NCBI GenBank assembly: GCA_965213925.1
Contig: OZ243927.1
Location: 2,656,001-2,720,000, forward strand
Reading direction: 5' to 3'
Origin: Trueperaceae bacterium
Lineage (GTDB): Bacteria; Deinococcota; Deinococci; Deinococcales; Trueperaceae
DNA length: 64,000 bases
Shown piece by piece: positions 12,973-56,149 of this stretch. The translations under genes and the position numbers were made by a program. Within the stretch, counting starts at the first letter, position 1. The number at the start of each line of letters is the position of its first letter. The notes beneath the pieces were generated by a model. That model was not told the origin of the DNA, ran no database searches, and saw nothing but the letters and a program-made list of their open reading frames with translations.

Positions 12973-13004
12973 TTTTGCGTTTAACGCGCGCGTCTCTCGC
13001 AGAA
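12973..13004. repeat. 32-bp palindromic boundary site
   Basis: TTTTGCGTTTAAC GCGCGC GTCTCTCGCAGAA. Confidence 0.85.
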
Positions 13005-13114
13005 GAACGCTACACTTTCGAGCCTTTCCATTATTCCGCAGAGATCAAAGGAACCACAATCTATTGACCGTTCAGTACATATTGTCATAGAAGTTTACTG
13101 CACGAATAGGTCAT

Positions 13115-13153
13115 TCCTCCCAAATTTCTCCTCCCAAATTTCTCCTCCGAAAT
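13115..13153. repeat. 14-bp tandem repeat, about 2.8 copies
   Basis: TCCTCCCAAATTTC x2 + TCCTCCGAAAT. Confidence 0.8.
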
Positions 13154-13219
13154 CTGACGTGCGACAAGCGCTTATCTGTATTCTTACGGCTAAAGTTCTG
13201 AACGGACTCTTTCATCTCG

Positions 13220-13314
13220 TTATCGGGAAGCTCGAGCGCCACCCTCGTTTCGCGTTTGGTGTCGCTAAGAAGCGGTTCCAAATCCTTGAGTTCGGAGCCT
13301 GCCAAGACGCGCAT
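13220..13314 (-). pseudogene. Remnant of a TelA-associated substrate-binding/vWA protein gene
   Basis: MRVLAGSELKDLEPLL..KRETRVALEL recalls the N-terminus of SBP/vWA proteins encoded beside telA; no continuation. Confidence 0.45.
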
Positions 13315-13469
13315 GGTGTTTGTTTCCTATCCGCAGCTCGTTAAAAGTGATGTGAGCGCGAGAGTTAGAAAGAAGGCGTTGCACTGTATCTTCTGAAAGG
13401 ACAGGGAAAAGGGAGAGGCGGCAACGCTTTTTCTCCCTATCCCCCTTACCCTCATCTCTCTGTCAAACC

Positions 13470-14200
13470 TTAAAGCCTAAGTTCGTTATCCGCTGCGTTG
13501 TCTGGAACCTCGAGCGTCAAATCCGCTGTCGCCCCCGCCACCTGCTCATTGCGTACCCGGTCCAGATACGTCTTCGACTTGCCAATCTCCGCTTCGAGCG
13601 TGTCTACGGTTTGCTGCATCACGCCTAGAGCTGCCTGCTTGTATTCAGAAATCGCGTCCACCGCTGCGTAAACATTATTGAAAGCCTTCTGGAGTTGCTC
13701 GACATCCACGGTCGCTCCAGCCGCCTGCGTATGTACGCTCGAGGATTGCTTTCTCAAGAGCGCCGAGGTGGACGCGATGAGATTGCCTGTAGTCGCGTTA
13801 AGCGCGTCTATCTGGTCCAAGACGAGCTTCTGATTTGCCAGTCCCTGCGAGACCATGACCGCCGTGCGCAGCGCCGACACCGTCGTGGTCGAGGCGCGGT
13901 CCACACCCTTGATGAGTTCTAAGTTGTTCTTGCGGACCATGTCGAGCGCTAGATAGCCCTGAATAGAGACGGCGAGCTGCGTCTGTAAGTCCTGCACTTT
14001 CTGCCGCAAGTAAAAGAGCATCTCCTCTTCAACCACGCGGGCTTTTTCGGGCTCGGTGCGCTTGAGTTTGTCCGCACGTGCTAAGAGCGCTTCGTCCACT
14101 TTCCGCGCCAGATAGATATACGACTCCAACTTCTCCATCGCTTCCCACAAATTGACCTTCTCCTGCTCGATAGTCGCGTTGTCCTTGCGCAGCTCGTCTT
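13470..14200 (-). CDS. Toxic anion resistance protein (TelA family), 5'-truncated
   Basis: DELRKDNATIEQEK...RQKVQDLQTQLAVSIQGYLALDMVRKNNLELIKGVDRASTTTVSALRTAV; the N-terminus is lost at the junction. Confidence 0.85.
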
Positions 14201-15941
14201 GCTGCCGGTTAAAAGGGTGTATCGCCTACTCTACCGGCCTGACCTCTACCTGCGCGCCTACGCCAAGCTCTACAAGAACGAAGGCGCACTGACACCAGGT
14301 GCCTCGGACGAAACCGTGGACGGGATGTCCCTAGCGAAAATTGATACCATCATCGAGGCGCTACGCCAAGAGCGGTATCGGTGGACGCCGGTACGACGCC
14401 GTTACATTCCCAAAAAGAATGGCAAGATGCGGCCTCTAGGGATGCCTTCCTGGTCGGACAAACTTCTTCAAGAAGTTATCCGCTCCATCCTGGAAGCCTA
14501 TTATGAACCGCGGTTCAGCGACCGTTCTCACGGCTTTCGACCGAAACGGGGATGCCACACAGCTTTGCGCAAAGTCACCCAAGAGGGTCGAGGTACAAAG
14601 TGGTTTATCGAGGGAGATATCTGCTCGTGTTTCGACAAGATTAACTTCGATGTCTTGTTGAACATCTTGCAGAAGAGCTTCCACGACAACCGCTTCCTGC
14701 GGCTTATCAAGGGGCTGCTCGAAGCTGGCTACCTGGAGAACTGGACCTTTCACCAGACCTACAGCGGTGTGCCGCAAGGGTCGATTGTCGGTCCAATCCT
14801 CACCAACCTGGTTCTGGACAGGCTGGACAAGTTTGTCGAGCACGAACTGATACCAGCTTACACACGCGGCGAACGCCGCAAGACCTACCCCCCGTATGTC
14901 GCCATCGCCAAAGCCGCTCACGACGCTCGGAAAGCAGGGAACTGGGAGACCGCGCGGCAACTGAGCCAGCAGGCCCAGACAATGCCGTCGCGCGACCCCG
15001 ATGACCCGAACTTCCGGCGATTGTGGTACCAAAGGTATGCCGATGACTTTCTGCTGGGGCTGAAAGGGCCAAAAGACGAGGCCGTGGCTATCAAGCAAGA
15101 GATTGCCGCCTTCTTACGCGACGAACTCAAGCTTGAGCTTAGCGAGGATAAGACCCTGCTGACCCACGCGCGCACGCAGAAAGCGCGTTTCCTGGGCTAT
15201 GAGGTCCACATTCTTCACGCTGACGATAAACACGACCACCGGGGACAACGCTGCATCAACGGCAGCGTCGGACTCCGGGTACCGTCGCACGTCATGAAAG
15301 CGCACTGCGCCAAGTACATGCGACGCGGCAAGCCCATTCACCTCCCACAAAGGCTCAGCAGCGATGCTTACAGCATCGTCAGCCAATATCAAGCGGAATA
15401 CCGCGGGGTCGTGCAGTATTACCGCATGGCCTACAACCTCCACACGCTGGGCCGACTCAAGCGCGTCACAGAACTCTCGCTAGTGAAAACGCTGGCGAAT
15501 AAGTTCAGGACGAGTTGCCAGAAAATCTATCGGCGCTACCGCACCACCATCGACCTCAAGGAGGGCAGCTATAAAGTCCTTCAAGTCAAAGTGGACCGTG
15601 GTCCTAAAAAGAAGCCACTCATCACCCACTTTGGCGGCATCCCGTTACGGTGGAACAAATGGGTAGCCTTGGACGACAACCAGAACAGTAAGATTTGGAA
15701 CGGGCGTAATGAAGTGGTGGACCGCCTTTTAGCGCAAAGCTGTGAGCTTTGTGGGTCGGTGGAGCACGTCGAAGTGCATCACGTCCGAAAACTGGCAGAC
15801 CTTGAACAAAGAGGGCGTAAGTCACGGCCCGAATGGATGCAAAGGATGTCGGCTCGCCGACGCAAGACGCTGGTGGTCTGCCTCACCTGCCACCAAGACA
15901 TCCATAAAGGGCACTACCACGGGAAAGGACTTTCATGTTGA
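14199..15941 (+). CDS. Group II intron reverse transcriptase/maturase with C-terminal HNH endonuclease (N-terminus clipped)
   Basis: TPG..ETVDG, RPLGMP, SHGFRP, EGDI..CFD, GVPQGS, RYADDF, maturase X domain, CELCG..HHVRKL..CLTCHQDIH. Confidence 0.95.
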   Translation: MLPVKRVYRLLYRPDLYLRAYAKLYKNEGALTPGASDETVDGMSLAKIDTIIEALRQERYRWTPVRRRYIPKKNGKMRPLGMPSWSDKLLQEVIRSILEAYYEPRFSDRSHGFRPKRGCHTALRKVTQEGRGTKWFIEGDICSCFDKINFDVLLNILQKSFHDNRFLRLIKGLLEAGYLENWTFHQTYSGVPQGSIVGPILTNLVLDRLDKFVEHELIPAYTRGERRKTYPPYVAIAKAAHDARKAGNWETARQLSQQAQTMPSRDPDDPNFRRLWYQRYADDFLLGLKGPKDEAVAIKQEIAAFLRDELKLELSEDKTLLTHARTQKARFLGYEVHILHADDKHDHRGQRCINGSVGLRVPSHVMKAHCAKYMRRGKPIHLPQRLSSDAYSIVSQYQAEYRGVVQYYRMAYNLHTLGRLKRVTELSLVKTLANKFRTSCQKIYRRYRTTIDLKEGSYKVLQVKVDRGPKKKPLITHFGGIPLRWNKWVALDDNQNSKIWNGRNEVVDRLLAQSCELCGSVEHVEVHHVRKLADLEQRGRKSRPEWMQRMSARRRKTLVVCLTCHQDIHKGHYHGKGLSC

Positions 15942-16048
15942 GATTACTGGAGAGCCCCGTGACACGGAAAGCGGTCATGCGGGGTTCGGAGGGGGGATGT
16001 TGGAAAAGCGCTATCTTTGATAGGCAGCTCGCTGGCATCCTACCCTAC
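14201..16048 (+). mobile_element. Group II intron (inner), 5' domains missing
   Basis: RT ORF followed by DV (GAGCCCCGTGACACGGAAAGCGGTCATGCGGGGTTC) and DVI ending CCTACCCTAC. Confidence 0.9.
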
Positions 16049-16103
16049 CGCACGCACGGCTCTTAGGGGGGAGGAAGGCAGCGATGTCTTCTTCCTACCC
16101 GAC
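16049..16103 (+). mobile_element. 3' end of a second (outer) group II intron: 3' half of DV plus DVI
   Basis: CGCACGCACGGCTCTTAGGGGGG then hairpin GAGGAAGGCA-GCGA-TGTCTTCTTC and CTACCCGAC terminus. Confidence 0.8.
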
Positions 16104-16114
16104 CTGTTGCACAG
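16104..16114. repeat. Partial right arm of a boundary site, interrupted by the intron
   Basis: CTGTTGCACAG = positions 3-13 of the right-arm pattern; first 8 nt are the reverse complement of TGCAACAG in the 18061 site. Confidence 0.6.
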
Positions 16115-16176
16115 CGGCACATCGCTGAGCAACATATTTTATAGTGATTCGGATTACGTTCTCCTATACTCAGGTT

Positions 16177-17985
16177 ATGCCTCGCCTCATCGTCATCTCA
16201 TTTTTACTTTGTAGCTTTCTCGTGGGTTGCTCGAGCACCACGCCACTTTCACCACCAGGTGAAACGCCCCCTGTGACTGAGCCTAACCCAACTACCCCTA
16301 CCGAACCGACTTCACCTGAAACGCCCGCGCCCGAACCAACACCCACCACCCTTACGCCTGAAGAAGCTGACCGCATCGCCCTGACGCTCTGGCGCAACGA
16401 TGACCTCGGCAAACATCCCAAGGGCTCCTGCTCAGGCTGTCACGGCGCGGACTACTTTGATCTCGCCCGCATTGGCTCGGCGGATGAGGATATCGCTCGG
16501 CGAGCGGTGATCGACGGAGCGAGTCAACGAGAGGCGGACGCGCTTGTGCAAGCAGTCGGGCAGATGCGCCAAACGTACGGGCTAGTCGCAGACGACGCCC
16601 GCGCCTTTCGCCCCTTTCAACCGGGCGGCGAGGTGCTGCTGCCTAATCTTGACGACGCTGAGCACATCGTTTCGGTGGAGCGAGATATCGCTTTTGGTCA
16701 CCAGCTAGAAGCTCTCTTGCCAACCCTCTTCGGCGAACGTATCGCCTCACTAGCGGACGCAGAACGGGCGCGTGACGAACTCTTGGACCTCGCCCAAGGA
16801 GCTAACCAGGCGGGCGCGAACTCCCAGCGTATTCAACTTAGGGAGTTGCCTACCGGCATCACCTACCCACGCTGGTCAGCCGATCTGCACCACGGCGCAG
16901 ACGAGGGCACGCTCAACGATTGGCTTGCCGATGTCGCGCACGACGCCAAGCCGGAGCACCGCGAGGCGTGGTTGGGGCTGCAAGACGCCTACCTTGCAAC
17001 CCCTAGCGACGAGAACTTCTGGCGCATGTATCTCGCCGCTGAGGAGATGACCGCGACGCCCCTTTTCGGTGAGTGCACCATGACGGGGGGAAGGGCGCAT
17101 ATAGCCTGTGCGGACGTTAAGCGCTTTGCTCGAGAGAAATTCTTGAGCGCGTTGACGGGTCAGCACATGATGCGCTTAGAGGCGTCCGGGCGTGAGGGTT
17201 TTGCGGAGGGCGCACTAGCCTTTTCATACCTCGACACCGACCCCCGCTTCGACTTCATGAAGGAGCGTAAGAGCCGCACGCTTTTGCCCGCCAACCTCTG
17301 GGAAGTGGGCGACAAGGGGCGGAGCACCTTAGAAAATTCTCAGGCTGAGGGCAGTTTTCGCGAGAACTTAGCGAAGCTCGGCTATCCTGAGTTTGTGCAA
17401 GGCAGCATCGACCCCACACGCAGCGCGAGCCAGGAACAACATGAGTTACGCCTCGCCTGGTTCTGGTTAGGCTTCACCTTCGACCCCTCCTTTGCCCGTA
17501 TTCACAGCTCCAACGCCACCAAAGTGGGTGAGTATATGGTGGGAACGCTCCTCGATGAGCGGATGTTCATTCACAATACCTTTCACACCAACATGCGGCT
17601 GGTGACTAAGGGGTTTTTACCAGAAGCGAACAGAGAACAGGCAGGGCGCGAGCGCACTCTGGAACAGCTGCCCACCGTTTTTCGCATGAACTACGGTTAC
17701 TTTTGGGCTTACGGGCGCACGGTGCTCAATTGGCGGGAGAACAAAAAGCTTAACTTCGTTTACCCCGAAGACCTCAAAGCGGAGCAAGCCGACCTCTGGC
17801 ACCGCTTTACGGCGAACGGCTTTCGGATGAGCATGTTTCTTTACTTGGCGGCATTAGAAGAGGGCGCACCTAAAGACAGCGTTGCTTTTGACGCCCTAAC
17901 GACGCACTTTGAGACCTACGAACCTGAGCATCAAGAAGCAGACAATGCGCTGATGGCGCAGCTTAGGCGTAAGCTGGAGGAGTAG
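16177..17985 (+). CDS. Hypothetical lipoprotein with Pro/Thr linker and one CxxCH motif
   Basis: Lipobox LVGC, PT-rich tether, CSGCH; TATACT-N6-ATG leaderless start. Confidence 0.75.
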   Translation: MPRLIVISFLLCSFLVGCSSTTPLSPPGETPPVTEPNPTTPTEPTSPETPAPEPTPTTLTPEEADRIALTLWRNDDLGKHPKGSCSGCHGADYFDLARIGSADEDIARRAVIDGASQREADALVQAVGQMRQTYGLVADDARAFRPFQPGGEVLLPNLDDAEHIVSVERDIAFGHQLEALLPTLFGERIASLADAERARDELLDLAQGANQAGANSQRIQLRELPTGITYPRWSADLHHGADEGTLNDWLADVAHDAKPEHREAWLGLQDAYLATPSDENFWRMYLAAEEMTATPLFGECTMTGGRAHIACADVKRFAREKFLSALTGQHMMRLEASGREGFAEGALAFSYLDTDPRFDFMKERKSRTLLPANLWEVGDKGRSTLENSQAEGSFRENLAKLGYPEFVQGSIDPTRSASQEQHELRLAWFWLGFTFDPSFARIHSSNATKVGEYMVGTLLDERMFIHNTFHTNMRLVTKGFLPEANREQAGRERTLEQLPTVFRMNYGYFWAYGRTVLNWRENKKLNFVYPEDLKAEQADLWHRFTANGFRMSMFLYLAALEEGAPKDSVAFDALTTHFETYEPEHQEADNALMAQLRRKLEE

Positions 17986-18060
17986 CAAGCTGTCGTCGCC
18001 TTGCTCAGCGCTTTTAGCCTGACCTTTATACAACAAACTAGGTCGAAACTTGCGTAAGCG

Positions 18061-18092
18061 CAATGCAACAGACGCGCGCGTTCGTCGCAGAA
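18061..18092. repeat. 32-bp palindromic boundary site
   Basis: CAATGCAACAGAC GCGCGC GTTCGTCGCAGAA. Confidence 0.85.
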
Positions 18093-19976: not shown

Positions 19977-20008
19977 TTCTGCAACGAACGCGCGCGTTCG
20001 CCGCAGAA
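19977..20008. repeat. 32-bp palindromic boundary site
   Basis: TTCTGCAACGAAC GCGCGC GTTCGCCGCAGAA. Confidence 0.9.
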
Positions 20009-21662: not shown

Positions 21663-21694
21663 TTGTGCAAAAGACGCGCGCGTTCGTCGCACAA
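21663..21694. repeat. 32-bp palindromic boundary site
   Basis: TTGTGCAAAAGAC GCGCGC GTTCGTCGCACAA. Confidence 0.9.
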
Positions 21695-22467: not shown

Positions 22468-22499
22468 CTGTGCGGCAGACGCGCGCAACTCTTGCACAA
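22468..22499. repeat. 32-bp palindromic boundary site
   Basis: CTGTGCGGCAGAC GCGCGC AACTCTTGCACAA. Confidence 0.88.
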
Positions 22500-22532
22500 A
22501 ACCAGAGCAACACGTCGTTATAAACTGCTTAC

Positions 22533-22985
22533 TCATTCCTTCGCCCGCTCAACAAGCGCTGCAATCCTCTCCTCGAAGCTGAAAGAGCCGAGCGGCTCGA
22601 CCTCGACTTGACGAAAGTCCGGATGGTCGGGGTTGAGAAGCACATTAAAGCTTTCAGGTGCGACCACTGAGGGAACGCGCAGAGCAACGCTTCTCGCTTC
22701 GCGCACCCAGGTGTCACCGTAGGACCGCGTCTGAACTCGGTCATTGATCCCGAGGTCGTCAGGCGCATTCTCGAGAAGAGTCTCATCGAAGGTACAGCGG
22801 TAAAGGTTATAACCCTGTAGGCTGGCGTAGACCTCCCAACCGGCTAGAATCTCTAGTGCAGCTAGAGCAGCGTGCTCCGCTGTATACACCATAACCGTGC
22901 CCTCGCTATTCCAACGCCCTGGTGCGCCGCGTGGTCTGAACGCCGCACTCAAACTGTTCGTAAAAGCTAAGCGGTAGACCTTCAA
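22533..22985 (-). CDS. RES-domain toxin (NAD+ phosphorylase family)
   Basis: VYR..GRWNSEG..VYTAEH..ALE..LRVPSVV..NVLLNPDHPDF. Confidence 0.92.
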   Translation of the reverse strand: MKVYRLAFTNSLSAAFRPRGAPGRWNSEGTVMVYTAEHAALAALEILAGWEVYASLQGYNLYRCTFDETLLENAPDDLGINDRVQTRSYGDTWVREARSVALRVPSVVAPESFNVLLNPDHPDFRQVEVEPLGSFSFEERIAALVERAKE

Positions 22986-23425
22986 AGAAAAGTGCCGTCC
23001 TCCAGCGCGGTAAGCATGTTTTGAAGCTTGCTGACCCCGACGCGCGTAGCCAGCAAGTCGATAGGTCTAGCTCCGTCTAGGGCAGCCTTAGGGCTCCCGA
23101 ACCAAGCTTTCGCCCCCTCCTGTCCGAGAATGCTCGCGACCCGTGCAAACAGGGTAAGCGCACTGTAGGTACGGTCTAAAAGCTCGACGCTCATATCTGG
23201 GTTCTTACTCTTGCGCGAGCGGCTGATGCCGAGCACAGCGAGTGCTTCGGTTTTGCTGATATCAAGCAGGGAAGTCAAACGTCTTAGAACCTGCTCGAGG
23301 GAGGACTCGCCAACGACAGTTTGCTTGAGCACGGCCTCAGCTACCTCGTTCGGCGTAGTGTCGAGTACCTGTTCAAACAGTGCCTCGCGGGTAGAAGCAA
23401 AGGAAGTCTGTATCACGTTCAACAT
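22982..23425 (-). CDS. Xre/MbcA/ParS-type antitoxin
   Basis: AKAWFGSPKAALDGARPIDLLATRVG..LEDG; overlaps RES start; start codon uncertain. Confidence 0.88.
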   Translation of the reverse strand: MLNVIQTSFASTREALFEQVLDTTPNEVAEAVLKQTVVGESSLEQVLRRLTSLLDISKTEALAVLGISRSRKSKNPDMSVELLDRTYSALTLFARVASILGQEGAKAWFGSPKAALDGARPIDLLATRVGVSKLQNMLTALEDGTFL

Positions 23426-23452
23426 AGTAGCATGAAACTTCAACGTTTAGCG

Positions 23453-23484
23453 CTCTGCAGGAGTTGCGCGCAACCGCCGCAGAA
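23453..23484. repeat. 32-bp palindromic boundary site
   Basis: CTCTGCAGGAGTT GCGCGC AACCGCCGCAGAA. Confidence 0.88.
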
Positions 23485-25104: not shown

Positions 25105-25136
25105 TTGTGCAACGAACGCGCGCGTTCGCCGCCTAA
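25105..25136. repeat. 32-bp palindromic boundary site
   Basis: TTGTGCAACGAAC GCGCGC GTTCGCCGCCTAA. Confidence 0.88.
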
Positions 25137-26481: not shown

Positions 26482-26498
26482 TTCTGCAACGAACGCGC
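26482..26498. repeat. Half boundary site
   Basis: TTCTGCAACGAAC GCGC, identical to the left arm of the 19977 site, then unrelated sequence. Confidence 0.75.
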
Positions 26499-30037: not shown

Positions 30038-30069
30038 TTCTGTGCGAGTTGCGCGCGTTCGCTGCACAG
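30038..30069. repeat. 32-bp palindromic boundary site
   Basis: TTCTGTGCGAGTT GCGCGC GTTCGCTGCACAG. Confidence 0.88.
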
Positions 30070-30952: not shown

Positions 30953-30984
30953 TTCTGCGCGAGTTGCGCGCGTCTCACGCACAA
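30953..30984. repeat. 32-bp palindromic boundary site
   Basis: TTCTGCGCGAGTT GCGCGC GTCTCACGCACAA. Confidence 0.9.
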
Positions 30985-37915: not shown

Positions 37916-37947
37916 TTGTGCGTGAGACGCGCGCGTTAGTTGCGCAA
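37916..37947. repeat. 32-bp palindromic boundary site
   Basis: TTGTGCGTGAGAC GCGCGC GTTAGTTGCGCAA. Confidence 0.9.
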
Positions 37948-37980
37948 AAGCCGAGCTTTACTGGACTACAACCAAACAGC

Positions 37981-38931
37981 TTAGGCATGGCGCAACCTCA
38001 GAACGATGTCCTGAGGGTAATTTCCGAAAGCGCGTCCAAAGAGGTTAAGGCCGCCGATAAAACGTGCGTCCGCCTCCACGCCGATACGAACTGAAATATA
38101 GTCGTGTGCGCCTATATTGAGATCGTCGAGGGTGACGCTCGAGACTTTGAGCCCGTCAACTAGGCTGTAATCACGGTTGACCTGCCAGACCTTAAGGAGT
38201 CCATACTGTGAGTTTCGGCTCTCCCACCATGAAGGGGTAAGCTTCCCCCGCTGCCCCCCGAAGTCCGCCGGGCTCGTCCAGGTTCCCACTTTAACGCCGC
38301 CTATCCACACGGAGATATCCGAGGGCCAATCATCGTGGTGCATAGGGGCTTCTGAGCAGACCTCAAAGCTCAGACTCAGGCTCTCTAACGTCGCTTTCGG
38401 CGGTAAGCGGTTGGGGAAGCGGTACTCGACATAACCTTGGTGAAACCATAGAAGCTGCGCTTGGGCGCGGCCCGTTTCATAGAACGAGGCGGGATCATCG
38501 AGCAGCCCGATGAGACCTGTTTGGCTCGCCAAGCCGCAGGTCGGGGTGACTTGACAGTCAACGAAAGCGCCAACCGGAGTCGAGAGTTCGGTAAAGTCGT
38601 CCTCTTGCCCCTTAACTTTGGGAAATTGGAGTAGCAGCGTGTCATAAGCTCTCGTACAGACCTTCTGCGAGCCGCGTGTCGCAGGTCTATGTTCGGTGAG
38701 GAGCAGCCCCGCCTCCTCCAAAACAGTGATATGCATGTTGGCTGTCGAGATGGGCAGCTCCAACGCCTGCGCGATCTCGCTGACGTTGAGCAGTTGATCA
38801 CCTAACAGGTGGAGGATGCGCAAGCGCGTCTCTGACGCTACCGCTTTGAGCGTACGGTAGGTCTCGCTATCTTCCGGGTCGCCCTGCAAGGAGAGGCCGC
38901 GTGGGTAGAGTTCGGGTTCGGCTAGGACCAT
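37981..38931 (-). CDS. ArsR-HTH regulator of carbohydrate loci
   Basis: ASETRLRIL..NVSEIA..GSQK; CSEAP, WTSPADFG, SQYGLLK, FGNYPQDI. Confidence 0.85.
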   Translation of the reverse strand: MVLAEPELYPRGLSLQGDPEDSETYRTLKAVASETRLRILHLLGDQLLNVSEIAQALELPISTANMHITVLEEAGLLLTEHRPATRGSQKVCTRAYDTLLLQFPKVKGQEDDFTELSTPVGAFVDCQVTPTCGLASQTGLIGLLDDPASFYETGRAQAQLLWFHQGYVEYRFPNRLPPKATLESLSLSFEVCSEAPMHHDDWPSDISVWIGGVKVGTWTSPADFGGQRGKLTPSWWESRNSQYGLLKVWQVNRDYSLVDGLKVSSVTLDDLNIGAHDYISVRIGVEADARFIGGLNLFGRAFGNYPQDIVLRLRHA

Positions 38932-39256
38932 GCTGTTTACCTCGTTATCTTTTAGAAAAAGCTCGATAACCCCACCCTTTTCTTACAGCTCAATATAACA
39001 TAAAAGAGGTGTTGATTCGTCTCCCGTTTGCCACCTCAGCTTGTGACCGTTGATCGAACTTAGACTAAACAGTTGAGTTGGAGACTAGCAAGGCATATCT
39101 ATAACGGTTTTATCGCTACCGAAAATAGAAGAAGATGTTACGCCGTTGTACCCTCCACGAGAAAAGACAGGTTGAAGTCGAAGTGACGCTGTTATATGGT
39201 CAACCTTGTAATAAAACACATTTACAAGAAACATAGCTGCTGAGAGGAGTGATACC

Positions 39257-41053: not shown

Positions 41054-41101
41054 GCTTCGCTTAGATGGGGTATTAAGATTTCGTTTATAGGAAAGCGGGG
41101 A

Positions 41102-42958: not shown

Positions 42959-43035
42959 CGACAGGCACCAAACTCACCAGCCAAACAAGTTACGAGTAAC
43001 GACCTTTAGTTCAATCCATGTTTTAAGGAGGAACG

Positions 43036-44325
43036 ATGCACCTCATATTCAAACGATTACAATTTGTTTTTGCCACCCTTTTTTTAGGTAGCTTCGCCCT
43101 AGCACAAGTGACCTGCTCAGAGGAGGCGCAGGGAGCGCAGATCGCCTTTTGGAACGGTTTTAGCGGCCCCGATGGTCAGTTTATGCAACAGCTCGTAGAC
43201 CGTTTCAACAGTGAAAACGAACAGGGTGTTACGGTCACTATGACCGTGCAACCCTTTACCGAGTATTACAACACGCTCAACGCGGCAGCTACCTCGAATA
43301 CGCTGCCTGATGTGGTGCAAATTCACCTCGATCAGCTTGCGACCAACGCGGTGCGCGGCGTAATCCGACCTATCTCGGAAGACATATTGGCGACTATGAG
43401 TATCGACGGCTCGGACTTTCCCGCGACGGTCTGGGAGGGTACCTCTTATAATGGCGAGCGCTACTCCATCCCGCTCGACGTTCACCCCTTGGTGATGTGG
43501 TACAACCGCGAGCAGTGGAGCGCGGCGGGCGTAGCGGACCCAGCGGGACAGGTTTTAGAGGGAGAGGCCTACGAAGCGGCGCTCCAAGCCCTCAAGGAGA
43601 GTAATGGTGAGGCCATCGCTTGGTCGATTACCACCGGCTTTCCTATCGAGTGGATGTTTCAAACGCTCCTTTATCAGTTTGGCGGAAGCGCCTTTAACGA
43701 GGACGCGAGCGAAGCAACCTGGAATAGCGAAGCGGGCGTCCAGGCGCTGACCTACCTCAAGGAACATCAAGCGCAGTTCTCGAGGCCCAATTTGCCCGTC
43801 GACGCGGGCATCACCGCCTTCAAGCAGGGTAACGACTCAACCGAGTGGAACGGCACCTGGCAGGTCAGCAACTTAACGGGTGAAGGCTACCAACCCGGTT
43901 GGGGCGCGCCTATTCCAAATATCGGCGGCGACTACGCAGTATTCGGCAACGCGCACACGCTGGCGCTGGCCGACCATGACGGAAATGAAGATGCGGCAAA
44001 AACCGCCGCCGCCGCTTGCTTGATCGACTTTATCTCCGCGAATTCGCTCGTCTGGGTGGAGGGCGCAGGACACATCCCAGCCCGCAACTCGGTCCGCGAA
44101 AGTAATGACTTTGCCGCCGTTGAACCCCAAGCCTCCTACGCGGTCATGGCTGAAGATGTAGTTTTCCCACCGCTCGTCCCCGGTATCACCGACGCCTTAG
44201 CTGAACTCACCGAAGCGGTGGCCGATGTCTTAGCGGGCAATGGTGACATCGAAGGCGCGCTCAACGAGTCCGCGGCTCGCGCCAATCAGGTGTTAGAGCA
44301 AAACCGCCGCCGTTACGCCCAGTAG
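43036..44325 (+). CDS. Sugar ABC transporter substrate-binding protein
   Basis: Signal peptide, FWNGFSGPDG, YSIPLDVHPL. Confidence 0.9.
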   Translation: MHLIFKRLQFVFATLFLGSFALAQVTCSEEAQGAQIAFWNGFSGPDGQFMQQLVDRFNSENEQGVTVTMTVQPFTEYYNTLNAAATSNTLPDVVQIHLDQLATNAVRGVIRPISEDILATMSIDGSDFPATVWEGTSYNGERYSIPLDVHPLVMWYNREQWSAAGVADPAGQVLEGEAYEAALQALKESNGEAIAWSITTGFPIEWMFQTLLYQFGGSAFNEDASEATWNSEAGVQALTYLKEHQAQFSRPNLPVDAGITAFKQGNDSTEWNGTWQVSNLTGEGYQPGWGAPIPNIGGDYAVFGNAHTLALADHDGNEDAAKTAAAACLIDFISANSLVWVEGAGHIPARNSVRESNDFAAVEPQASYAVMAEDVVFPPLVPGITDALAELTEAVADVLAGNGDIEGALNESAARANQVLEQNRRRYAQ

Positions 44326-44433
44326 TTAAGCTCAGTCGTTTCGTCCGGTCGTCACGCCTATCTGCGCGGGGTCGGGTTTTCATCTTCCCCGCGCAACCTT
44401 ATAAGCCTTGTGAAGGAAAGTTAGGTAGAATCT

Positions 44434-45375
44434 ATGGCTACACAGCAGTCCGTTCAAAGCCGCGCTGCGGCGAGCCGCTCGCCCAGTAAGCGCAAGCGCT
44501 TCAAGGTCACGCCTTACCTCTTCATTTTGCCGCACCTCGTTTTTTTTGCTGTATTTTTGGCGTGGCCTCTTTTCTACGGTATTTACATCAGCCTCTTCGA
44601 GTACGACTTTTCTTTTCCTGACTATCGGCCTTTCGTCGGCCTACAAAACTACCGAAATCTGTTCGAAAGCTCGAGCATTCAATATGACGACTTTTGGAAC
44701 GCTCTCACCAATACTGGGGTCTTCGTCCTTTGGAGTTTGCCCCCCCTAGTCATCGTGGCGCTCTTTTTAGCGGTTCTCTTAAACGGTAAGTACCGGGGGC
44801 GCAACTTTTTCCGCGGCATCTACTTTGCCCCGTGGTCGCTCTCCGCCGTGGTCGCTTCGCTCCTCGGCTGGTGGATTTTCCAAGACCAGAGCGGACTGAT
44901 GAACGCCTTTTTAGCGCAGCTTGGGCTGCCTGAAGTCGCTTGGCTCGGCTCGTTGCCGTGGGCGTGGATTGCCATTACCGTCGTCACCGTCTGGTGGACG
45001 GTGGGCTTTAACGCCATCATCTTTTTAGCGGCCCTGCAAGACATCCCCGACACCTACTACGACGCCGCTGCAATTGACGGCGCAAATAAGCTGCAGCGGT
45101 TCTGGCATGTCACCTTGCCGCAGCTTAGACCTGTGCTTATCTTTGTCATTACCATTACCCTTATAGCCTCGGCTAACTTGTTCGCCCAGCCCTTTATTAT
45201 GACGCGCGGAGGTCCGGCGCAGGGCACCGAACCGATCATCATGCTGATCTATAACGAAGGTTTTGGCGCTTTTCGGATGGGCAGCGCCGCCGCGATGTCC
45301 GTGGTTCTTGCAGCAATTCTGCTCGTTTTGACGGTGCTTAACTTCAGGGTTTTTGGCAGCGGAGAGGGACGTTAA
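44434..45375 (+). CDS. Sugar ABC permease
   Basis: FVGLQNY, YDAAAIDGA. Confidence 0.92.
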   Translation: MATQQSVQSRAAASRSPSKRKRFKVTPYLFILPHLVFFAVFLAWPLFYGIYISLFEYDFSFPDYRPFVGLQNYRNLFESSSIQYDDFWNALTNTGVFVLWSLPPLVIVALFLAVLLNGKYRGRNFFRGIYFAPWSLSAVVASLLGWWIFQDQSGLMNAFLAQLGLPEVAWLGSLPWAWIAITVVTVWWTVGFNAIIFLAALQDIPDTYYDAAAIDGANKLQRFWHVTLPQLRPVLIFVITITLIASANLFAQPFIMTRGGPAQGTEPIIMLIYNEGFGAFRMGSAAAMSVVLAAILLVLTVLNFRVFGSGEGR

Positions 45376-45377
45376 AG

Positions 45378-46241
45378 ATGGCGCAAACAAGCGGACGTGT
45401 TGAGAGTCAGCGAGCAGGTCGAGGGTTACTTGGCAAGGTGCTGCTCTACACCGTACTCATCTTTTTCGCCTTTTTTTTCCTCTTGCCGCTTCTATGGATG
45501 GGGGTGACTGCGCTTAAACCCGCCGGCGAATGGCTGCTCCCCAATTGGATTCCGCAGCGACCCACCTTGGAGAACTTCACCGCTATCTTTAGTAACCCTT
45601 CGCTGCCGGTATTGCGCTGGTTTATCAATAGCGCTGCGGTAGCAACCGTCTTCACCGCTTTGGTCTTATTGCTCGATTCGCTCGCAGCTTACGCTTATGC
45701 CCGGATGGACTTTCCGGGTCGCAACATCCTCTTTGGCCTGCTCATTAGCACACTGGTTATGCCTGCCATCATCTTCTTAATTCCCAACTACCTTACGGTC
45801 GCTACCTTGGGTGGACTCAACAGCTACTGGGGTATTTTCGCGCCAGGGCTGGCCGGGGTTTTCGGCGTGTTTTTCCTGAGACAGTTCTTCTTGAGCTTGC
45901 CTAAGGAGTTAGAGGAGGCCGCACTCATTGACGGGGCCGGTATCTGGACCATCTTTTTTAGGATCGTATTACCGCTCTCAGTTCCGGCCCTCTCAACGCT
46001 AGGCATCATCACCTACCTCGCCTCTTGGAACGACTTTCTCTGGCCCCTGCTTATCGTCGGCAACGACCCGCTCAAGCAGACGCTGCCGGTCGGACTGGCG
46101 AAGCTCCAAGGTGCCTATGTATTTCAATACGGGCAACTCATGGCAGGCGCGGTCATTGCGGCGCTGCCGGTGCTCATTCTCTACTTGACCCTGCAACGCT
46201 ATATCGTGCAGAGCGTAGCGTCAACTGGGCTCAAGGGTTGA
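45378..46241 (+). CDS. Sugar ABC permease
   Basis: EEAALIDGA, WNDFLWPL, TLPVGL. Confidence 0.92.
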   Translation: MAQTSGRVESQRAGRGLLGKVLLYTVLIFFAFFFLLPLLWMGVTALKPAGEWLLPNWIPQRPTLENFTAIFSNPSLPVLRWFINSAAVATVFTALVLLLDSLAAYAYARMDFPGRNILFGLLISTLVMPAIIFLIPNYLTVATLGGLNSYWGIFAPGLAGVFGVFFLRQFFLSLPKELEEAALIDGAGIWTIFFRIVLPLSVPALSTLGIITYLASWNDFLWPLLIVGNDPLKQTLPVGLAKLQGAYVFQYGQLMAGAVIAALPVLILYLTLQRYIVQSVASTGLKG

Positions 46242-46386
46242 GGGAGAGGTGCACAAAGCGGACGTTACATGAATGTCGCTGCTGCCCAGTTCTTCTCACA
46301 TGAACTTATCCGAGTTGCCTATGTCCATCTTTACGACTCTGTGAAACTAAGGCACCGCTACATGCTGCGACCCTGAAAGGAAACCT

Positions 46387-47382
46387 GTGCGCACGTTTTG
46401 CCTCGTCCTTATTAGCTTACTCATAACCCAGGCTACAGCCCAATACGTCAACCCCGTTGTTACGCCCGTTGCCGCTGACCCCAGTATCATCCGCACTCCA
46501 GATGGCACCTTTTACCTTTACGCTACTCAGGACGACTGGGGCGAGGGGAGTCACTACATCCCCATCTTTCGTTCAGACGACCTTGTAGAGTGGACGTTTG
46601 TCAAGGACGCTTTTACTTGGCCGCCTAGCTGGAAAGAGGGGGGCGGCTTTCTCTGGGCTCCCGATATTTCACGGCGCGGCGATACCTACTACCTTTACTA
46701 CGCCGCCTCCCTCTGGGGCGACCCGAACCCCTGCATCGGTCTCGCCACGGCGAGCCACCCCGAAGGTCCGTGGGAAGACCTAGGTCGTGCTGTATTTTGC
46801 TCCGAGGATATCGGCGTTGGCAACTCTATCGACCCCTTCGTGATGTACGAGAACAGCGAAAGGTGGATAGTTTGGGGGAGCTTTCAGGGTATTTACGCCG
46901 TAGAGCTGAGCCAAAACGGGACAGAAGCTGTGGGCGACCCCGTTCTTCTCGCGGACACCCGCTTTGAGGCTCCCTACATCATTCAGCGTGACGGTTACTA
47001 CTACCTCTTTCTCTCGGCAGGTTCGTGTTGTGAAGGGGAGTGGAGTACCTACCAGACGCTCGTGGGACGCTCGGCTAACCTGCTTGGACCTTACTTGGAC
47101 GCTGACGGGCGTGACTTGCGCTCGGGCGGCGGGACGCTCATTTTAGACCGCAATGACACGTGGATTGGACCTGGTCACAACGCCGTCATTCAAGACGACG
47201 CGGGGGACGATTGGATCATCTATCACGCGATTCCAAAAGCAGACTCGAGGCTTGCGAATGGGGTCAACCGCCGCCCCACGCTCCTCGACCGCATCATATG
47301 GGTGAACGGCTGGCCGGTCGTCAATAATGGTGACGGCGCGAGCGCTGCGGCAAAAGCCGCGCCGAAAGTGACGACCCCATGA
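46387..47382 (+). CDS. GH43 glycoside hydrolase, exported
   Basis: ADPS, WAPD, SIDP, FEAP, GPGHN. Confidence 0.9.
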   Translation: MRTFCLVLISLLITQATAQYVNPVVTPVAADPSIIRTPDGTFYLYATQDDWGEGSHYIPIFRSDDLVEWTFVKDAFTWPPSWKEGGGFLWAPDISRRGDTYYLYYAASLWGDPNPCIGLATASHPEGPWEDLGRAVFCSEDIGVGNSIDPFVMYENSERWIVWGSFQGIYAVELSQNGTEAVGDPVLLADTRFEAPYIIQRDGYYYLFLSAGSCCEGEWSTYQTLVGRSANLLGPYLDADGRDLRSGGGTLILDRNDTWIGPGHNAVIQDDAGDDWIIYHAIPKADSRLANGVNRRPTLLDRIIWVNGWPVVNNGDGASAAAKAAPKVTTP

Positions 47383-48323
47383 GCCGAGCAACACGCTCCG
47401 CCCAGGTGCAGCAGCTTAGCGACATGAACCCAGTCTACGCCGGCTACCTCGCTGACCCCTTTGTACTTGCTTACCAAGGTCAGTATTATGCGTACGGTAC
47501 GGACTCCGTTTTGGACGGTCGGGTGTTCCAGGTGCTTCAGTCTCCCGACCTTATCCGCTGGACCTCTTTAGGCACAGCTTTGAAGACACTGGAGGGCGAG
47601 CCATGCGATTACTGGGCTCCTGAAGTCGCATTGAATGGTGACACCTTTTATATGTACTATTCGGTTGGCAAGGGCGATAAAGGTCATATGCTCCGCGTCG
47701 CCACCGCGAAAGCGCCGCAGGGTCCCTTCACTGACTTAGGCTTGTGCCTCACGGCAGATGAGCCTTTCGCCATCGACCCTCACCCTTTCCAGGACGACGA
47801 CGGGGCGTGGTATCTATTTTATGCGAAAGACTTTTTGGAGGGCGAGCGGGTTGGGACCGGTTTAGTGGTAGACCGTTTGGAGGGGATGACCCGCCTTGTG
47901 GGAGAGACGCGCACCGTACTGCGGGCTACCGCTGACTGGCAACTCTATAAGCGGCAGCGAAAGATGTACGGACGCACGCTGGACTGGTACACGCTTGAGG
48001 GTCCTTTTGTAGTCAAGCGTTTCGGGCGCTACTACTGCTTCTTTTCGGGCGGCAACTGGCAGAACGAAAGCTACGGCGTCTCGTACGCTGTAGCGCCGCA
48101 CCCTCTTGGTCCTTGGCGTGAGCCACATCCTGAAAGCCCTGCGCTTTTGAAGTCTGTAGAGGACGCGCTCATTGGTCCCGGACACAACTCGCTTATTGTG
48201 GGACCAGGAGATGAAGACCGCCTTGTATTTCACGCCTGGAATAGAATGCGAACTGCTCGGCAGATGTGGATCGGGCGGCTTCACTGGATGGGTGAAGAGC
48301 CAAAGCTTATTCATAGTTTATAG
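47379..48323 (+). CDS. GH43 glycoside hydrolase, cytoplasmic
   Basis: ADPF, WAPE, AIDP, TLEGP, GPGHN. Confidence 0.9.
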   Translation: MSRATRSAQVQQLSDMNPVYAGYLADPFVLAYQGQYYAYGTDSVLDGRVFQVLQSPDLIRWTSLGTALKTLEGEPCDYWAPEVALNGDTFYMYYSVGKGDKGHMLRVATAKAPQGPFTDLGLCLTADEPFAIDPHPFQDDDGAWYLFYAKDFLEGERVGTGLVVDRLEGMTRLVGETRTVLRATADWQLYKRQRKMYGRTLDWYTLEGPFVVKRFGRYYCFFSGGNWQNESYGVSYAVAPHPLGPWREPHPESPALLKSVEDALIGPGHNSLIVGPGDEDRLVFHAWNRMRTARQMWIGRLHWMGEEPKLIHSL

Positions 48324-48336
48324 GCCTTTGTAGATT

Positions 48337-48368
48337 TTGTGCAATTAACGCGCGCAACTGGCGCACAA
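48337..48368. repeat. 32-bp palindromic boundary site
   Basis: TTGTGCAATTAAC GCGCGC AACTGGCGCACAA. Confidence 0.9.
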
Positions 48369-53607: not shown

Positions 53608-53637
53608 TTTGTGGAGTGACGCGTGTCTCTCGCAGAA
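53608..53637. repeat. Degenerate boundary site (4-nt core)
   Basis: TTTGTGGAGTGAC GCGT GTCTCTCGCAGAA; right arm identical to that of the 12973 site. Confidence 0.7.
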
Positions 53638-53720
53638 GACTAAGAAAAGCGGCGAGCCTTCGGAGCTGTAGGCATGTCGAGCGCGTTGCCGCCTTGCCAG
53701 AAGGGTGTAATACTCGGCGT

Positions 53721-55028
53721 ATGCTCACGGATGAGATCACTTTCGCCCCCGCCGCCACCCTCGCTAGGGCGATAAGGCTTAAAGACCTCTCCTCCGTAGA
53801 GGTGGTCGAGGTCTACCTCAAGCGAACCGAGGTGGTGAACCCTAGCCTCAACGCCGTCGTGCAGCTCGCCGCGGAAGCCGCCCTGAGCGACGCGCGGCTG
53901 GCCGACGAAGCCCTCGCGCGAGGAGATACGACCGGCCCTTTGCACGGCGTCCCTTTCACCGTTAAAGACTGGCTCGAGACGAAGGGAGTGGTATGCACCG
54001 CGGGCGAAGAGAGGCACCGAAGGTACGTTCCGAAGCATGACGCCACCGCCGTGGCGCGGCTGCGCGAGGCCGGCGGCATCTTCCTCGGCAAGACCAACAT
54101 TACCGTCAACAACCCCGTCTACGGGCGCACCAATAACCCCTACAACCTGGCGTACACGCCAGCGGGTAGCAGCAGCGGCGAGGCGGCTATCATCGCGGCG
54201 GGCGGCTCACCTTTGGGGTTGGGCAGCGACTCGGGCGGGAGCATCCGCCAGCCCGCTCACAACTGCGGCATCGCCGGGTTCAAGCCGAGCACGGGCAGGG
54301 TCCCCCTCACAGGGCACCTGCCGCGCATCAACCCCATGAGCGACCCCCGCACGACGATTGGACCGATGGCGCGCTACGTAGAAGACCTGGCGCTCGCGCT
54401 GCCCGTCATCAGCGGCGTGGACTGGCAGGACGCCAGCGTCGTTCCCGTGCCGCTCGGCCACTGGCAGGACGTCGGGGTAGAGCGCCTGCGCGTGGCCTTC
54501 TACACGAGACACGAGCACGCCGAGCCGACCCCGGAGACGGACGAGGTGGTGAGAAGGGCGGCGCGAGCCCTCGCCCGGCTCGAGGTCGAGGAGGCGCGGC
54601 CCGAGCGGGTCGAGGAAGCGTACGCGATCACCCGCGCCTATTGGCAGCGGCCCGAGTCGGAATCGTGGGACGCGTGGGCGCCCGACGGTGAGGCGAAGCT
54701 GAGCGGCGAGGAGGTCGAGCGACACCTGTTCGAGTGGGACCGGTTCCGGCGCAGCCTTATCCGCTTCATGGCGCACTACGACGTCATCTTGACGCCTGTC
54801 GCCGAAAAACCTGCCGTGCCCCATGGCGAGTCGGAAGGCGGCATCCCCTACACACTGCCCTACAGCCTCACGGGCTACCCCTGCGCGGTGGTGCGCGGCG
54901 GCAGCTCGCCCGAGGGGCTGCCGATCGGGGTGCAGGTCGTGGCGAGGCCGTGGCGCGATGACGTGGCGCTCGCGGTCGCGCACTATCTCGAGCAGGCTCT
55001 GGGGGGATACCGAAAGCCTGCGATCTAG
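53721..55028 (+). CDS. Amidase-signature family enzyme
   Basis: GPLHGVPFTVKD, GSSSGE, GSDSGGSIR, GLPIGVQ. Confidence 0.92.
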   Translation: MLTDEITFAPAATLARAIRLKDLSSVEVVEVYLKRTEVVNPSLNAVVQLAAEAALSDARLADEALARGDTTGPLHGVPFTVKDWLETKGVVCTAGEERHRRYVPKHDATAVARLREAGGIFLGKTNITVNNPVYGRTNNPYNLAYTPAGSSSGEAAIIAAGGSPLGLGSDSGGSIRQPAHNCGIAGFKPSTGRVPLTGHLPRINPMSDPRTTIGPMARYVEDLALALPVISGVDWQDASVVPVPLGHWQDVGVERLRVAFYTRHEHAEPTPETDEVVRRAARALARLEVEEARPERVEEAYAITRAYWQRPESESWDAWAPDGEAKLSGEEVERHLFEWDRFRRSLIRFMAHYDVILTPVAEKPAVPHGESEGGIPYTLPYSLTGYPCAVVRGGSSPEGLPIGVQVVARPWRDDVALAVAHYLEQALGGYRKPAI

Positions 55029-55135
55029 AGGCGCGCTTGTTACGCCCACGCCCTGGGCTATCGGTCTTGTCATCACTTTACTTACCTACGTACCAGGACG
55101 ATTGCGCGCCTGACCGGGTCGTCGCTGCTTAAGCG

Positions 55136-55167
55136 GTGTGCGAGAGACGCGCGCGTCTCTCGCATTG
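55136..55167. repeat. 32-bp palindromic boundary site (perfect 26-bp palindrome)
   Basis: GTGTGCGAGAGAC GCGCGC GTCTCTCGCATTG. Confidence 0.9.
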
Positions 55168-55260
55168 CGCTTTAACACCCCTTGAGCTATCTTCCGGTTG
55201 GCATAGCAATAAGTGGGCAATTATGCTATCAACTATGGTATAATTGCCAAGAGGTGCAAG

Positions 55261-55653
55261 ATGACCGTTCAACAGTTGGTTCAAAGCAACAGCACGGAGC
55301 GCATTGCAGCAGTTCGCGAAGGGCTCTCCTTCGAGAGCTTCGTCACGTTGCGTGAAGCCTTAGGCGTGAGTACGGATGAGCTCGCTCAGCTTTTGGGCAT
55401 CCCCCGTCGCACGCTGACCAAGCGGCAGAGCGAGGGTGTCTTTAAGCTCGCTGAGAGCAACGCCATCAGCCGGGTTGCTCGTGTGTACAAAGAAGCGCTC
55501 GACTTTTTCGATGACGAGGTGGATACCCTAAGGTGGCTTAAGACACCCTTGCCTGCGCTCGGCGGAACGCCTCTGGACCTGCTCGATACCGACCCCGGCG
55601 CAGATGCGGTGAGCACGCTACTGGCTCAACTCGCCTGGGGCATCTATCCTTGA
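55261..55653 (+). CDS. Xre/MbcA/ParS-type antitoxin
   Basis: HTH (LAQLLGIPRRTL), ES..SRVARV, WLKTPLPALGGTPLDLLDT..G. Confidence 0.92.
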   Translation: MTVQQLVQSNSTERIAAVREGLSFESFVTLREALGVSTDELAQLLGIPRRTLTKRQSEGVFKLAESNAISRVARVYKEALDFFDDEVDTLRWLKTPLPALGGTPLDLLDTDPGADAVSTLLAQLAWGIYP

Positions 55654-56105
55654 TCGTCGCTTGGCGGCTCACGCATGAGCGCTTCAAAGATCAGGCAACG
55701 AGTGGTAACGGCGGGCTGTTCGCACCAGGGCGCTGGCACAGCCAAGGAAGATATATTGTGTATAGCTCGAGCAGCTTGGCGCTTGCCACACTCGAGCTGT
55801 TCGTGAATTTGCAGAACAGGCGGCAGCTCGCTCACTATGTCAAGAGCCAAATAGAGATTCCTGAAGCGCTTACCGAAATCCTAGAAGAGGCTGCTCTAAG
55901 GACGTTTTTAAGGGCTCCTGACCAGTTTGATAGCCGCAGCTACGGCGACTCGTGGTTCGCTGGGGAGCGAAGCTGCGTACTCCGGGTTCCGAGTCGGGTG
56001 GTACCGCAGGAATGGAATTACCTCATTAACCCATTGCACGCAGACTTCGAGAAGATCACCGCCTCGACCAACCTATACGAGGTGGATGAGCGCCTCTTGC
56101 CATAA
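55650..56105 (+). CDS. RES-domain toxin
   Basis: WR..GRWHSQG..VYSSSSLALATLE..LRVPSRVVP.E.NYLINPLH. Confidence 0.92.
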   Translation: MIVAWRLTHERFKDQATSGNGGLFAPGRWHSQGRYIVYSSSSLALATLELFVNLQNRRQLAHYVKSQIEIPEALTEILEEAALRTFLRAPDQFDSRSYGDSWFAGERSCVLRVPSRVVPQEWNYLINPLHADFEKITASTNLYEVDERLLP

Positions 56106-56119
56106 AGCAGTAATCAGAG

Positions 56120-56149
56120 TTGTGCACCGAACGCGCGTTAGCTGCATAA
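56120..56149. repeat. Boundary site with 4-nt core
   Basis: TTGTGCACCGAAC GCGC GTTAGCTGCATAA. Confidence 0.8.

Follow-up and report, generated by a model that had tools for sequence, protein, structure and literature searches.

What are the short palindromes that separate functionally unrelated genes in a Trueperaceae chromosome, and what part do they play in assembling those genes? The question is raised by a window of 64,000 nt, the whole stretch of DNA analyzed here, from a Trueperaceae bacterium (assembly GCA_965213925.1, contig OZ243927.1, positions 2,656,001-2,720,000, forward strand; window positions are 1-based). Within it, a 43-kb accessory stretch is cut into about 17 units by copies of a 32-bp inverted repeat. 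An earlier note on this DNA had proposed a recombinase-driven cassette array with a self-complementary core. The present analysis likewise concludes that the 32-bp elements are probably double-stranded DNA recombination sites bounding mobile modules, a reading supported by the exchange of arms between sites, the reordering of modules, the clustering of the sites and the lack of hairpin covariation.

A family of 32-bp sites

Each site consists of a 13-bp arm, the hexamer GCGCGC and a second 13-bp arm. All 19 positions given in the earlier note do carry the motif, in 14 intact copies and five that are decayed or partial, and all are confined to window positions 12973-56149 (Table 1). A position weight matrix (PWM) was built from the 14 complete copies in both orientations; the scores of these same copies, 24.8-42.8, are to that extent circular, and the best score among 20 shuffled windows was 7.9. 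When up to three mismatches were allowed, the pattern of the earlier note matched 10 times in the window and not once in 100 dinucleotide-preserving shuffles. The housekeeping DNA on either side (1-12.6 kb and 57-64 kb), where Pfam recognizes an aminotransferase, an arginase, ABC transporters, a glycoside hydrolase (GH) of family 1 and an argininosuccinate lyase, contains no position scoring above -7, and the sites are thus absent from it, as had been claimed.

According to the column counts of the matrix, an arm begins at its outer end with TTSTGC, continues through five loose bases and ends beside the core with AC (about 70%) or TT, the other arm being its mirror image. The inner end can be summarized as RAC or GTT, and left and right arms yield one consensus. 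The invariant part of the site is the central 6 bp rather than the arms, and 14 of the 19 window copies, remnants included, carry GCGCGC.

Modules are reshuffled at the sites

The window was compared by blastn with other Trueperaceae loci, and the informative relative is contig CBDBZX010000008.1, represented by two merged stretches, A and B. Three blocks of the window recur there, encoding a 613-aa hypothetical protein, an alcohol dehydrogenase (ADH) and an amidase; a fourth block is a 1108-bp duplicate within the relative itself, whose copies, 54 kb apart, encode a 150-aa open reading frame (ORF) and an ArsR-like helix-turn-helix protein. An all-versus-all blastp of the ORFs of the window and the relatives returned the same four blocks and no further shared modules. 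The earlier note would have been contradicted by a gene order conserved across the sites; instead, the three window modules recur in another order and neighborhood, and their homology ends at sites. The ADH and amidase modules adjoin in the relative with one hybrid site between them, while in the window they lie 16 kb apart in the opposite order. The four blocks have eight ends, and at seven of these the homology breaks off at a site; at the right end of the duplicate, the copies agree up to the final base of the core and no further.

The arms show where these junctions fall. At the six block ends where both genomes have a 32-mer, 71 of 78 bases agree in the arms on the side of the module and 33 of 78 in those on the far side, the core is common to both, and the DNA beyond the far arm is unrelated between the genomes. 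Rare arm variants, with the outer hexamers CAATGC, GTGTGC and CTACGC, accompany their module; the left arm of site 18061 carries the odd hexamer CAATGC, and the same arm is found on the relative's copy of the 613-aa-protein module. Since the module-side arm is conserved and the far arm is not, the crossover would lie within the core, and the synteny breakpoints, which the earlier note had proposed to compare with the position of GCGCGC, are found there as a swapping of arms. Such junctions match what conservative recombination within a 6-bp core would leave, and would be hard to obtain by random intergenic breakage. Decayed copies can be read in the same way: the window sites at 36783 and 53608 align to intact sites in the relative, and the partial copy at 16104 is, by its homology to an intact site there, a site remnant.

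A candidate recombinase

A Pfam search of 250 ORFs (61 from the window, and 83 and 106 from the relatives' loci; about 250 kb in total) revealed one tyrosine recombinase, a Phage_integrase protein at L033:7995-8954 in OZ243956.1 (E 7.8e-38), and neither a Y1/RAYT transposase nor a resolvase. Insertion sequence transposases (IS6-, IS630-, IS4/5-, IS3- and IS1595-like) are present in the relatives' arrays. The window itself has no recombinase gene, as had been stated, either by Pfam on its 61 ORFs or by tblastn with the relative's integrase, which found no integrase remnants.

The best structural match of the L033 integrase is E. coli XerD (PDB 1a0p, E 1.3e-33), with an alignment that spans the full length; next come an archaeal XerC-like protein (4a8e, E 1.4e-31) and a XerA chain (5hxy, E 4.5e-27). 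In the alignment with 1a0p, the R, K, HxxR, H and Y motifs are visible, which we take to be the catalytic Arg, Lys, His-x-x-Arg, His and Tyr residues. The NCBIfam models score it below their cut-offs, at 206 bits (cut-off 335) for XerC, 198 (330) for XerD and 189 (220) for archaeal XerA, as do the integron models TIGR02249 (108 bits, cut-off 265) and PRK15417 (67, cut-off 435). A protein search returned 366 relatives at E<=1e-30; among the matches listed, the homologues form about 43 clusters at 70% identity or more, the close ones at 81-84%, and the tier at 50-59% includes Alicyclobacillus and Sulfobacillus.

In this related genome the putative recombinase gene is itself carried between two sites, in a unit shared with a RES/Xre toxin-antitoxin pair. 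Its likely ATG, at L033:8064, follows a GGAGG and is separated from a site by 66 nt; read from there, the protein has 296 aa (L033:8064-8954). OZ243956.1 carries a paralogue at a distance of 2 Mb (L087; 78% identical in the 77 residues available), where a site precedes the ATG by 65 nt, and the arms and first ~32 nt differ between the sites of the two paralogues. Both genes have a conserved leader (L033 8030-8063; L087 268-235, minus strand) whose GGAGG ribosome-binding site can base-pair with a CCTCC lying upstream, a pairing that may act as a translational brake on the recombinase. Whether the sites are acted on by this Xer-like integrase family is, on this evidence, roughly an even call.

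The elements might instead be recombination sites on which an enzyme other than the site-adjacent integrase acts, either the host's housekeeping Xer system, with the sites dif-like as has been suggested for Acinetobacter pdif, or a serine recombinase. Although unlikely, this is the most probable of the alternatives. With no recombinase gene in the window or in the 78 kb of the relative's array, the enzyme must act in trans; the integrase is Xer-like by NCBIfam, and the GC at the center of the palindrome is as in some serine-recombinase crossover sites. The integrase nevertheless falls far under the XerC and XerD equivalog cut-offs, has a similar paralogue and sits between sites with a toxin-antitoxin pair, unlike a housekeeping gene, while the lack of any resolvase-family match among the 250 ORFs speaks against a serine enzyme. 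The text of PMC9764985 and PMC3025954 covered by a term search does not give a Deinococcus dif site. The window motif presumably does not resemble canonical dif.

Probable duplex sites rather than hairpins

The copies are short, palindromic, intergenic and lineage-specific, and they could belong to an ordinary intergenic repeat family, such as repetitive extragenic palindromic (REP) elements, bacterial interspersed mosaic elements (BIMEs) or another selfish or structural palindrome, with synteny breaking through microhomology at the short cores. In a hairpin-forming repeat, compensatory changes should keep the two arms of a site matched to each other. In 44 sites (14 from the window and 30 from the relatives with PWM>=24 and an intact core), the arms of one site are complementary at 8.11 of 13 positions, compared with 8.06 +/- 0.23 for randomly re-paired arms (p=0.43); at the variable positions 7-13, the values are 3.43 observed and 3.45 random. 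Complementarity per site spans 3 to 12 of 13. The mean minimum free energy (MFE) of folding is -9.9 kcal/mol for real sites and -10.3 for chimeric arm pairs, a run of four or more T lies within 12 nt at 1 of the 44 sites, and Rfam at gathering thresholds matched no family on any site, its sole match being a group II intron. Arms no more complementary than random, together with the rarity of T-runs, constitute evidence against REP, attC, terminator and RNA-structure readings, and these hairpin models were rejected on three grounds: the independence of the arms, the comparison of folding energies and the scarcity of T-runs. The sites fit two independent protein-binding half-sites that are continually re-assorted.

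Further evidence bears on the repeat-family reading. No RAYT or Y1 gene occurs among the 250 ORFs, so that the association with a RAYT/IS200 transposase which would have told against the earlier note is not seen in this sample; copies are single and do not form BIME-like clusters; and clean arm exchange at 7 of 8 breakpoints, within a window of ~6-10 bp, is unexpected from 6-bp microhomology. Solitary copies scattered in a 4.5-Mb chromosome and a bias toward gene 3' ends are in keeping with a repeat family, yet such a family is, on balance, quite improbable.

To examine the distribution of the motif, a degenerate version of 30 bp was run against 185,579 reference genomes. Among the matches listed (at least 89 stretches), four Trueperaceae (Deinococcota) assemblies account for 18 of the 89, with up to six pattern matches per 20 kb. 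The other 71, from other taxa, held no copy at PWM>=20 in 37 cases and one in 34, never two or more, as expected by chance for a 34-bit pattern; among the matches listed, multi-copy occurrence is thus restricted to the four Trueperaceae assemblies. Their merged DNA (186 kb) holds 34 copies at PWM>=15. The site-bearing contigs reach 0.78-4.5 Mb: CBDBZX010000008.1 (783 kb) has 23 copies within 78 kb, and in the 4.5-Mb chromosome OZ243956.1 the copies form small groups in four places far apart. An even spread through core intergenic DNA, which would have spoken against the cassette proposal, is not what is observed; in the window and the relatives' loci, the copies are concentrated among accessory genes, and the adjacent housekeeping genes have none. 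A plasmid origin was considered and rejected, a megablast of window positions 13000-37999 against PLSDB giving one irrelevant 163-bp match.

Two separate observations concern stretches from the scan. Several Alcaligenaceae contigs (L010, L052, L059 and L088; also L058 and L069), some of them labelled as 'Bordetella parapertussis' metagenome-assembled genomes, each contain a single 32-mer that fits the pattern. These 32-mers are nearly identical to one another and probably represent one conserved locus unrelated to the Trueperaceae sites. In OZ243956.1 (L049 8746-8959 and 9815-10031), ~185 bp and an adjoining site form a tandem repeat (80.7%) flanking a 1-kb PIN-domain unit.

Position relative to genes

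The 14 intact window sites lie in six convergent, six tandem and two divergent contexts, and the variety of settings described in the earlier note is evident. Over the window and relatives, 42 sites have ORFs on both sides: 14 in 44 convergent gaps, 24 in 148 tandem gaps and 4 in 40 divergent gaps (chi-square p=0.02). A gene 3' end is abutted by 52 of the 84 arms. The sites avoid divergent promoter regions, yet are not limited to 3' ends. Arm classes tied to the 5' or the 3' side of genes were sought, and no clear difference was found.

Long palindromes of two half-sites are typical of dimeric DNA-binding proteins, for which a loose arm consensus is common, and the elements could thus be operators of a global regulator or binding sites of a nucleoid-associated or segregation protein. 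This is very improbable: the placement of 14 of the 42 sites between convergent gene ends and of only 4 between divergent genes speaks against it, the arm exchange at reshuffled module ends is left unexplained, and the part that does not vary is the core rather than the arms. Bidirectional terminators or RNA-stabilizing hairpins, suggested by the arms that abut 3' ends, are scarcely credible given the near absence of T-runs, a folding energy no better than that of random arm pairs, the wide range of complementarity from site to site and the want of any Rfam match on a site.

Comparison with known systems

An inverted-arm site of 13-6-13 bp has the layout of simple tyrosine-recombinase sites, those of the Cre type being 13-8-13. 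Inverted arms and a spacer identical between partners are both found here, with GCGCGC in 14 of 19 window copies and 32 of 34 copies in the relatives. Cre/loxP-type sites and single-Xer dif (XerA) sites are alike in their inverted 11-13-bp arms, their 6-8-bp spacer and, presumably, their dependence on one recombinase species. They occur, however, once or twice per replicon with an asymmetric spacer that sets direction, whereas the Trueperaceae sites number dozens per region and have a symmetric spacer.

The dif modules of Acinetobacter are the closest working analogy. According to the excerpted text of PMC13141974, they too place accessory genes, often toxin-antitoxin pairs and small regulons, between short sites of the tyrosine-recombinase type whose spacer measures 6 bp; each module takes its half-sites along, order and orientation vary, matching spacers are needed, and the recombinase lies outside the array. 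The movement of half-sites with their module to give hybrid sites, a feature of membership in that class, is seen here in the arm identities at the six block ends. The differences are nonetheless several. Sites of Acinetobacter dif modules are asymmetric and 28 bp long (XerC arm, 6-bp spacer, XerD arm; excerpt of PMC13141974), in contrast to 13+6+13 = 32 bp with one arm consensus and an invariant palindromic spacer. The alternation of C and D modules that follows from oriented sites is not found in Trueperaceae, where two arm classes are lacking and the arms at the two ends of a module match at 7.94 of 13 positions, against 7.98 by chance. The dif modules reside mainly on Rep_3 plasmids of Acinetobacter, while the Trueperaceae sites are chromosomal and the window is without a PLSDB plasmid match. 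They use the host XerC and XerD; in one Trueperaceae relative, a Xer-like gene adjoins sites, the sole recombinase seen and one that scores below the XerC/XerD cut-offs. The Trueperaceae sites fall outside the class in its defining features of site length, asymmetry, C/D alternation, plasmid location and genus. A 2025 study (PMC11705084) argues that Acinetobacter dif sites mainly form cointegrates rather than excise modules.

Integron arrays, CALINs among them, resemble the window in their long runs of unrelated accessory and toxin-antitoxin genes, their chimeric palindromic sites and their Xer-related recombinase (excerpt of PMC4889954). The attC sites are, however, longer and vary in length, and they recombine in a folded single-stranded form that has R and L boxes and extrahelical bases, while the Trueperaceae sites have a fixed 32 bp and no selection for pairing. 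An IntI gene next to the array is likewise not found: the window has none, and the integrase of the relative scores 108 bits against a cut-off of 265. Integron cassettes are mostly co-oriented and promoterless, in contrast to modules that occupy both strands, several of them with TetR, ArsR or LuxR regulators.

A literature search turned up neither an account of such sites in Truepera or Deinococcota nor a paper on a tyrosine recombinase in Trueperaceae. It is tentatively suggested, at somewhat less than even likelihood, that the sites belong to an unrecognized Trueperaceae cassette platform, with polarity-free duplex 13-6-13 sites, a universal GCGCGC core and a dedicated Xer-derived recombinase riding with an addiction module, which would make it a third solution beside integrons and dif modules.

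A model for the array

In the model proposed, the 32-mers would be duplex recognition sites of a conservative site-specific recombinase, with two 13-bp inverted arms around a 6-bp crossover region. A module would be the stretch between two sites, with one to eight genes and usually its own regulator or toxin-antitoxin pair. Each module end would carry one half-site, so that every site of the array is a hybrid of its neighbors' arms. A dedicated Xer-like tyrosine recombinase, acting in trans, would bind both arms, pair two sites and exchange strands across GCGCGC, presumably with cleavage at the edges of the core and through a circular intermediate. Since every core has the same symmetric sequence and all arms follow a common consensus, the sites should have no polarity and any pair should be compatible, which fits the mixed strands of the genes. 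Pairing of any two sites could then yield excision, insertion, inversion and reordering of modules. Mutated or shortened cores, at 36783, 53608 and 56120 in the window and at two sites in the relative, may be frozen joints that fuse modules.

Several observations weigh against this model. The comparison with the relative rests on four shared blocks, and one of the eight block ends, relative B 11040 (the left end of copy B of the duplicate), has no recognizable site, although a bare GCGCGC stands 25 nt upstream of it. The adjacency of integrase and site is known from two paralogues in one genome, and the loci were fetched for containing sites, which inflates proximity. Neither the window nor the 78 kb of the relative's array holds a recombinase gene, and the central GC dinucleotide would also suit a serine recombinase. 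The rarity of sites between divergent genes (4 of 40 gaps, compared with 14 of 44 convergent) is not predicted by pure recombination, unless selection spares promoters. Finally, over 34 modules the arm at one end of a module resembles the arm at the other end no better than a random arm does, and so only the flanking sites mark a module as a unit; a module-specific arm pairing, in which a perfect palindrome would be re-formed on circularization, is unsupported by the same figures.

Gene content of the modules

The Pfam search of the 61 window ORFs underlies the module annotation and agrees with the functionally unrelated units that the earlier note had described between sites. They include a metallophosphoesterase, hydrolases, two RES/Xre toxin-antitoxin pairs, GH5, GH130, an HNH/RHH pair, a TetR regulator with a hydrolase, DUF421, ADH, an ArsR-regulated sugar locus of 10.4 kb, a five-ORF unit and an amidase. 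The RES/Xre pairs recur as site-bounded units, two in the window (22533-23443 and 55213-56105) and at least three in the relatives, one of which shares its unit with the integrase.

The region between the left edge of the array and site 18061 contains a group II intron fragment that lacks the 5' half of the ribozyme, and its 3' end, at 16103, abuts an 11-nt right-arm remnant. Its other side is occupied by a truncated minus-strand TelA gene (13470-14150), of which profile positions 127-332 are left. The fragment looks like the product of 5'-truncated retrohoming into the core of a site, or 2 nt beside it, with the left half-site replaced or lost. Group II introns are described as targeting integron attC sites in the excerpted text of PMC7923331. 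Downstream of the TelA fragment, a 56-nt stretch (window 13410-13464) matches at 85.7% part of a 93-nt inverted repeat of the relative (A 47682-47774), the two probably representing a second small repeat family. A 38-nt near-perfect palindrome at 26594-26631, about 100 nt past the broken site at 26482, matches itself and is unrelated to the site family.

Table 1. Sites, modules and other features of the window, with the corresponding features of related Trueperaceae DNA.
Feature	Position	Strand	Remarks
Intact site, left array edge	12973..13004		PWM 37.6
Right-arm remnant, 11 nt	16104..16114		Directly after 3' end of group II intron fragment; aligns to right arm of intact site, relative A 22032
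Intact site	18061..18092		Left arm 12/13 versus relative, right arm 8/13
Intact site	19977..20008		PWM 42.3
Intact site	21663..21694		PWM 42.4
Intact site	22468..22499		PWM 40.4
Intact site, between divergent genes	23453..23484		PWM 34.9
Intact site	25105..25136		PWM 37.3
Broken site	26482..26498		Left arm and 4 nt of core (GCGC), then unrelated DNA; inside 4.9-kb unit 25137-30037
Intact site	30038..30069		PWM 33.7
Intact site, between divergent genes	30953..30984		PWM 39.9
Intact site	34248..34279		PWM 42.8
Site with intact core, weak arms	36108..36139		PWM 24.8
Decayed site, core GCATGC	36783..36814		PWM 12.9; right arm goes with ADH module, 11/13 to relative B 16940
Intact site	37916..37947		Left arm goes with ADH module, 11/13; right arm 3/13
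Intact site	48337..48368		PWM 39.0
Decayed site, 4-nt core	53608..53637		Right arm goes with amidase module, 12/13 to relative B 18468
Intact site	55136..55167		Left arm goes with amidase module, 12/13; right arm 6/13
Decayed site, 4-nt core, right array edge	56120..56149
Group II intron, 5'-truncated	14199..16103	+	Reverse transcriptase/maturase/HNH ORF 14199-15941; Rfam domains V-VI 15950-16048, 46 bits
Module, 613-aa protein of no Pfam family (16144-17985)	16104..18079	+	Relative CBDBZX010000008.1: 85.5% DNA, 89.6% protein identity
Module, RES toxin (22533-22985) and Xre-type antitoxin (22982-23443)	22500..23452	-	Pfam
Module, zinc-type ADH (36913-37887)	36802..37934	+	92.4% to relative, there directly beside amidase module
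Largest module, 10.4 kb	37948..48336		ArsR-type regulator (-), then GH2, GH43, sugar-binding protein, two permeases, two GH43 (+)
Five-ORF unit	48356-53620		Two proteins of no Pfam family, beta-lactamase-family, RDD-family and HIT-family protein
Module, amidase (53616-55028 as called)	53621..55154	+	94.0% to relative
Module, Xre-type antitoxin (55213-55653) and RES toxin (55650-56105)	55168..56119	+	Pfam
Shared block, 613-aa hypothetical	16104-18094		85.5% identity to relative
Shared block, ADH	36794-37934		92.4% identity to relative
Shared block, amidase	53620-55157		94.0% identity to relative
Duplicate within relative, 1108 bp	A 27411-28518 and B 11040-12147		99.9% identity
RES/Xre pairs in relatives	L031 6769-7715; L033 8977-9920; L033 15653-16406		One shares unit with integrase

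Implications

If confirmed, the present reading would extend site-bounded gene modules, known mainly from integrons and from Acinetobacter plasmids, to the chromosomes of another phylum, in arrays that span 43 kb or more in the window and include 23 sites in 78 kb of one relative. The design of the sites would be fully symmetric and universally compatible, which raises the question of how cells tolerate dozens of mutually recombinogenic sites. A recombinase and site pair of such simplicity would also be a candidate genetic tool. For the Trueperaceae themselves, the arrays would represent a route by which these environmental bacteria gather glycoside hydrolases, transporters and toxin-antitoxin pairs.

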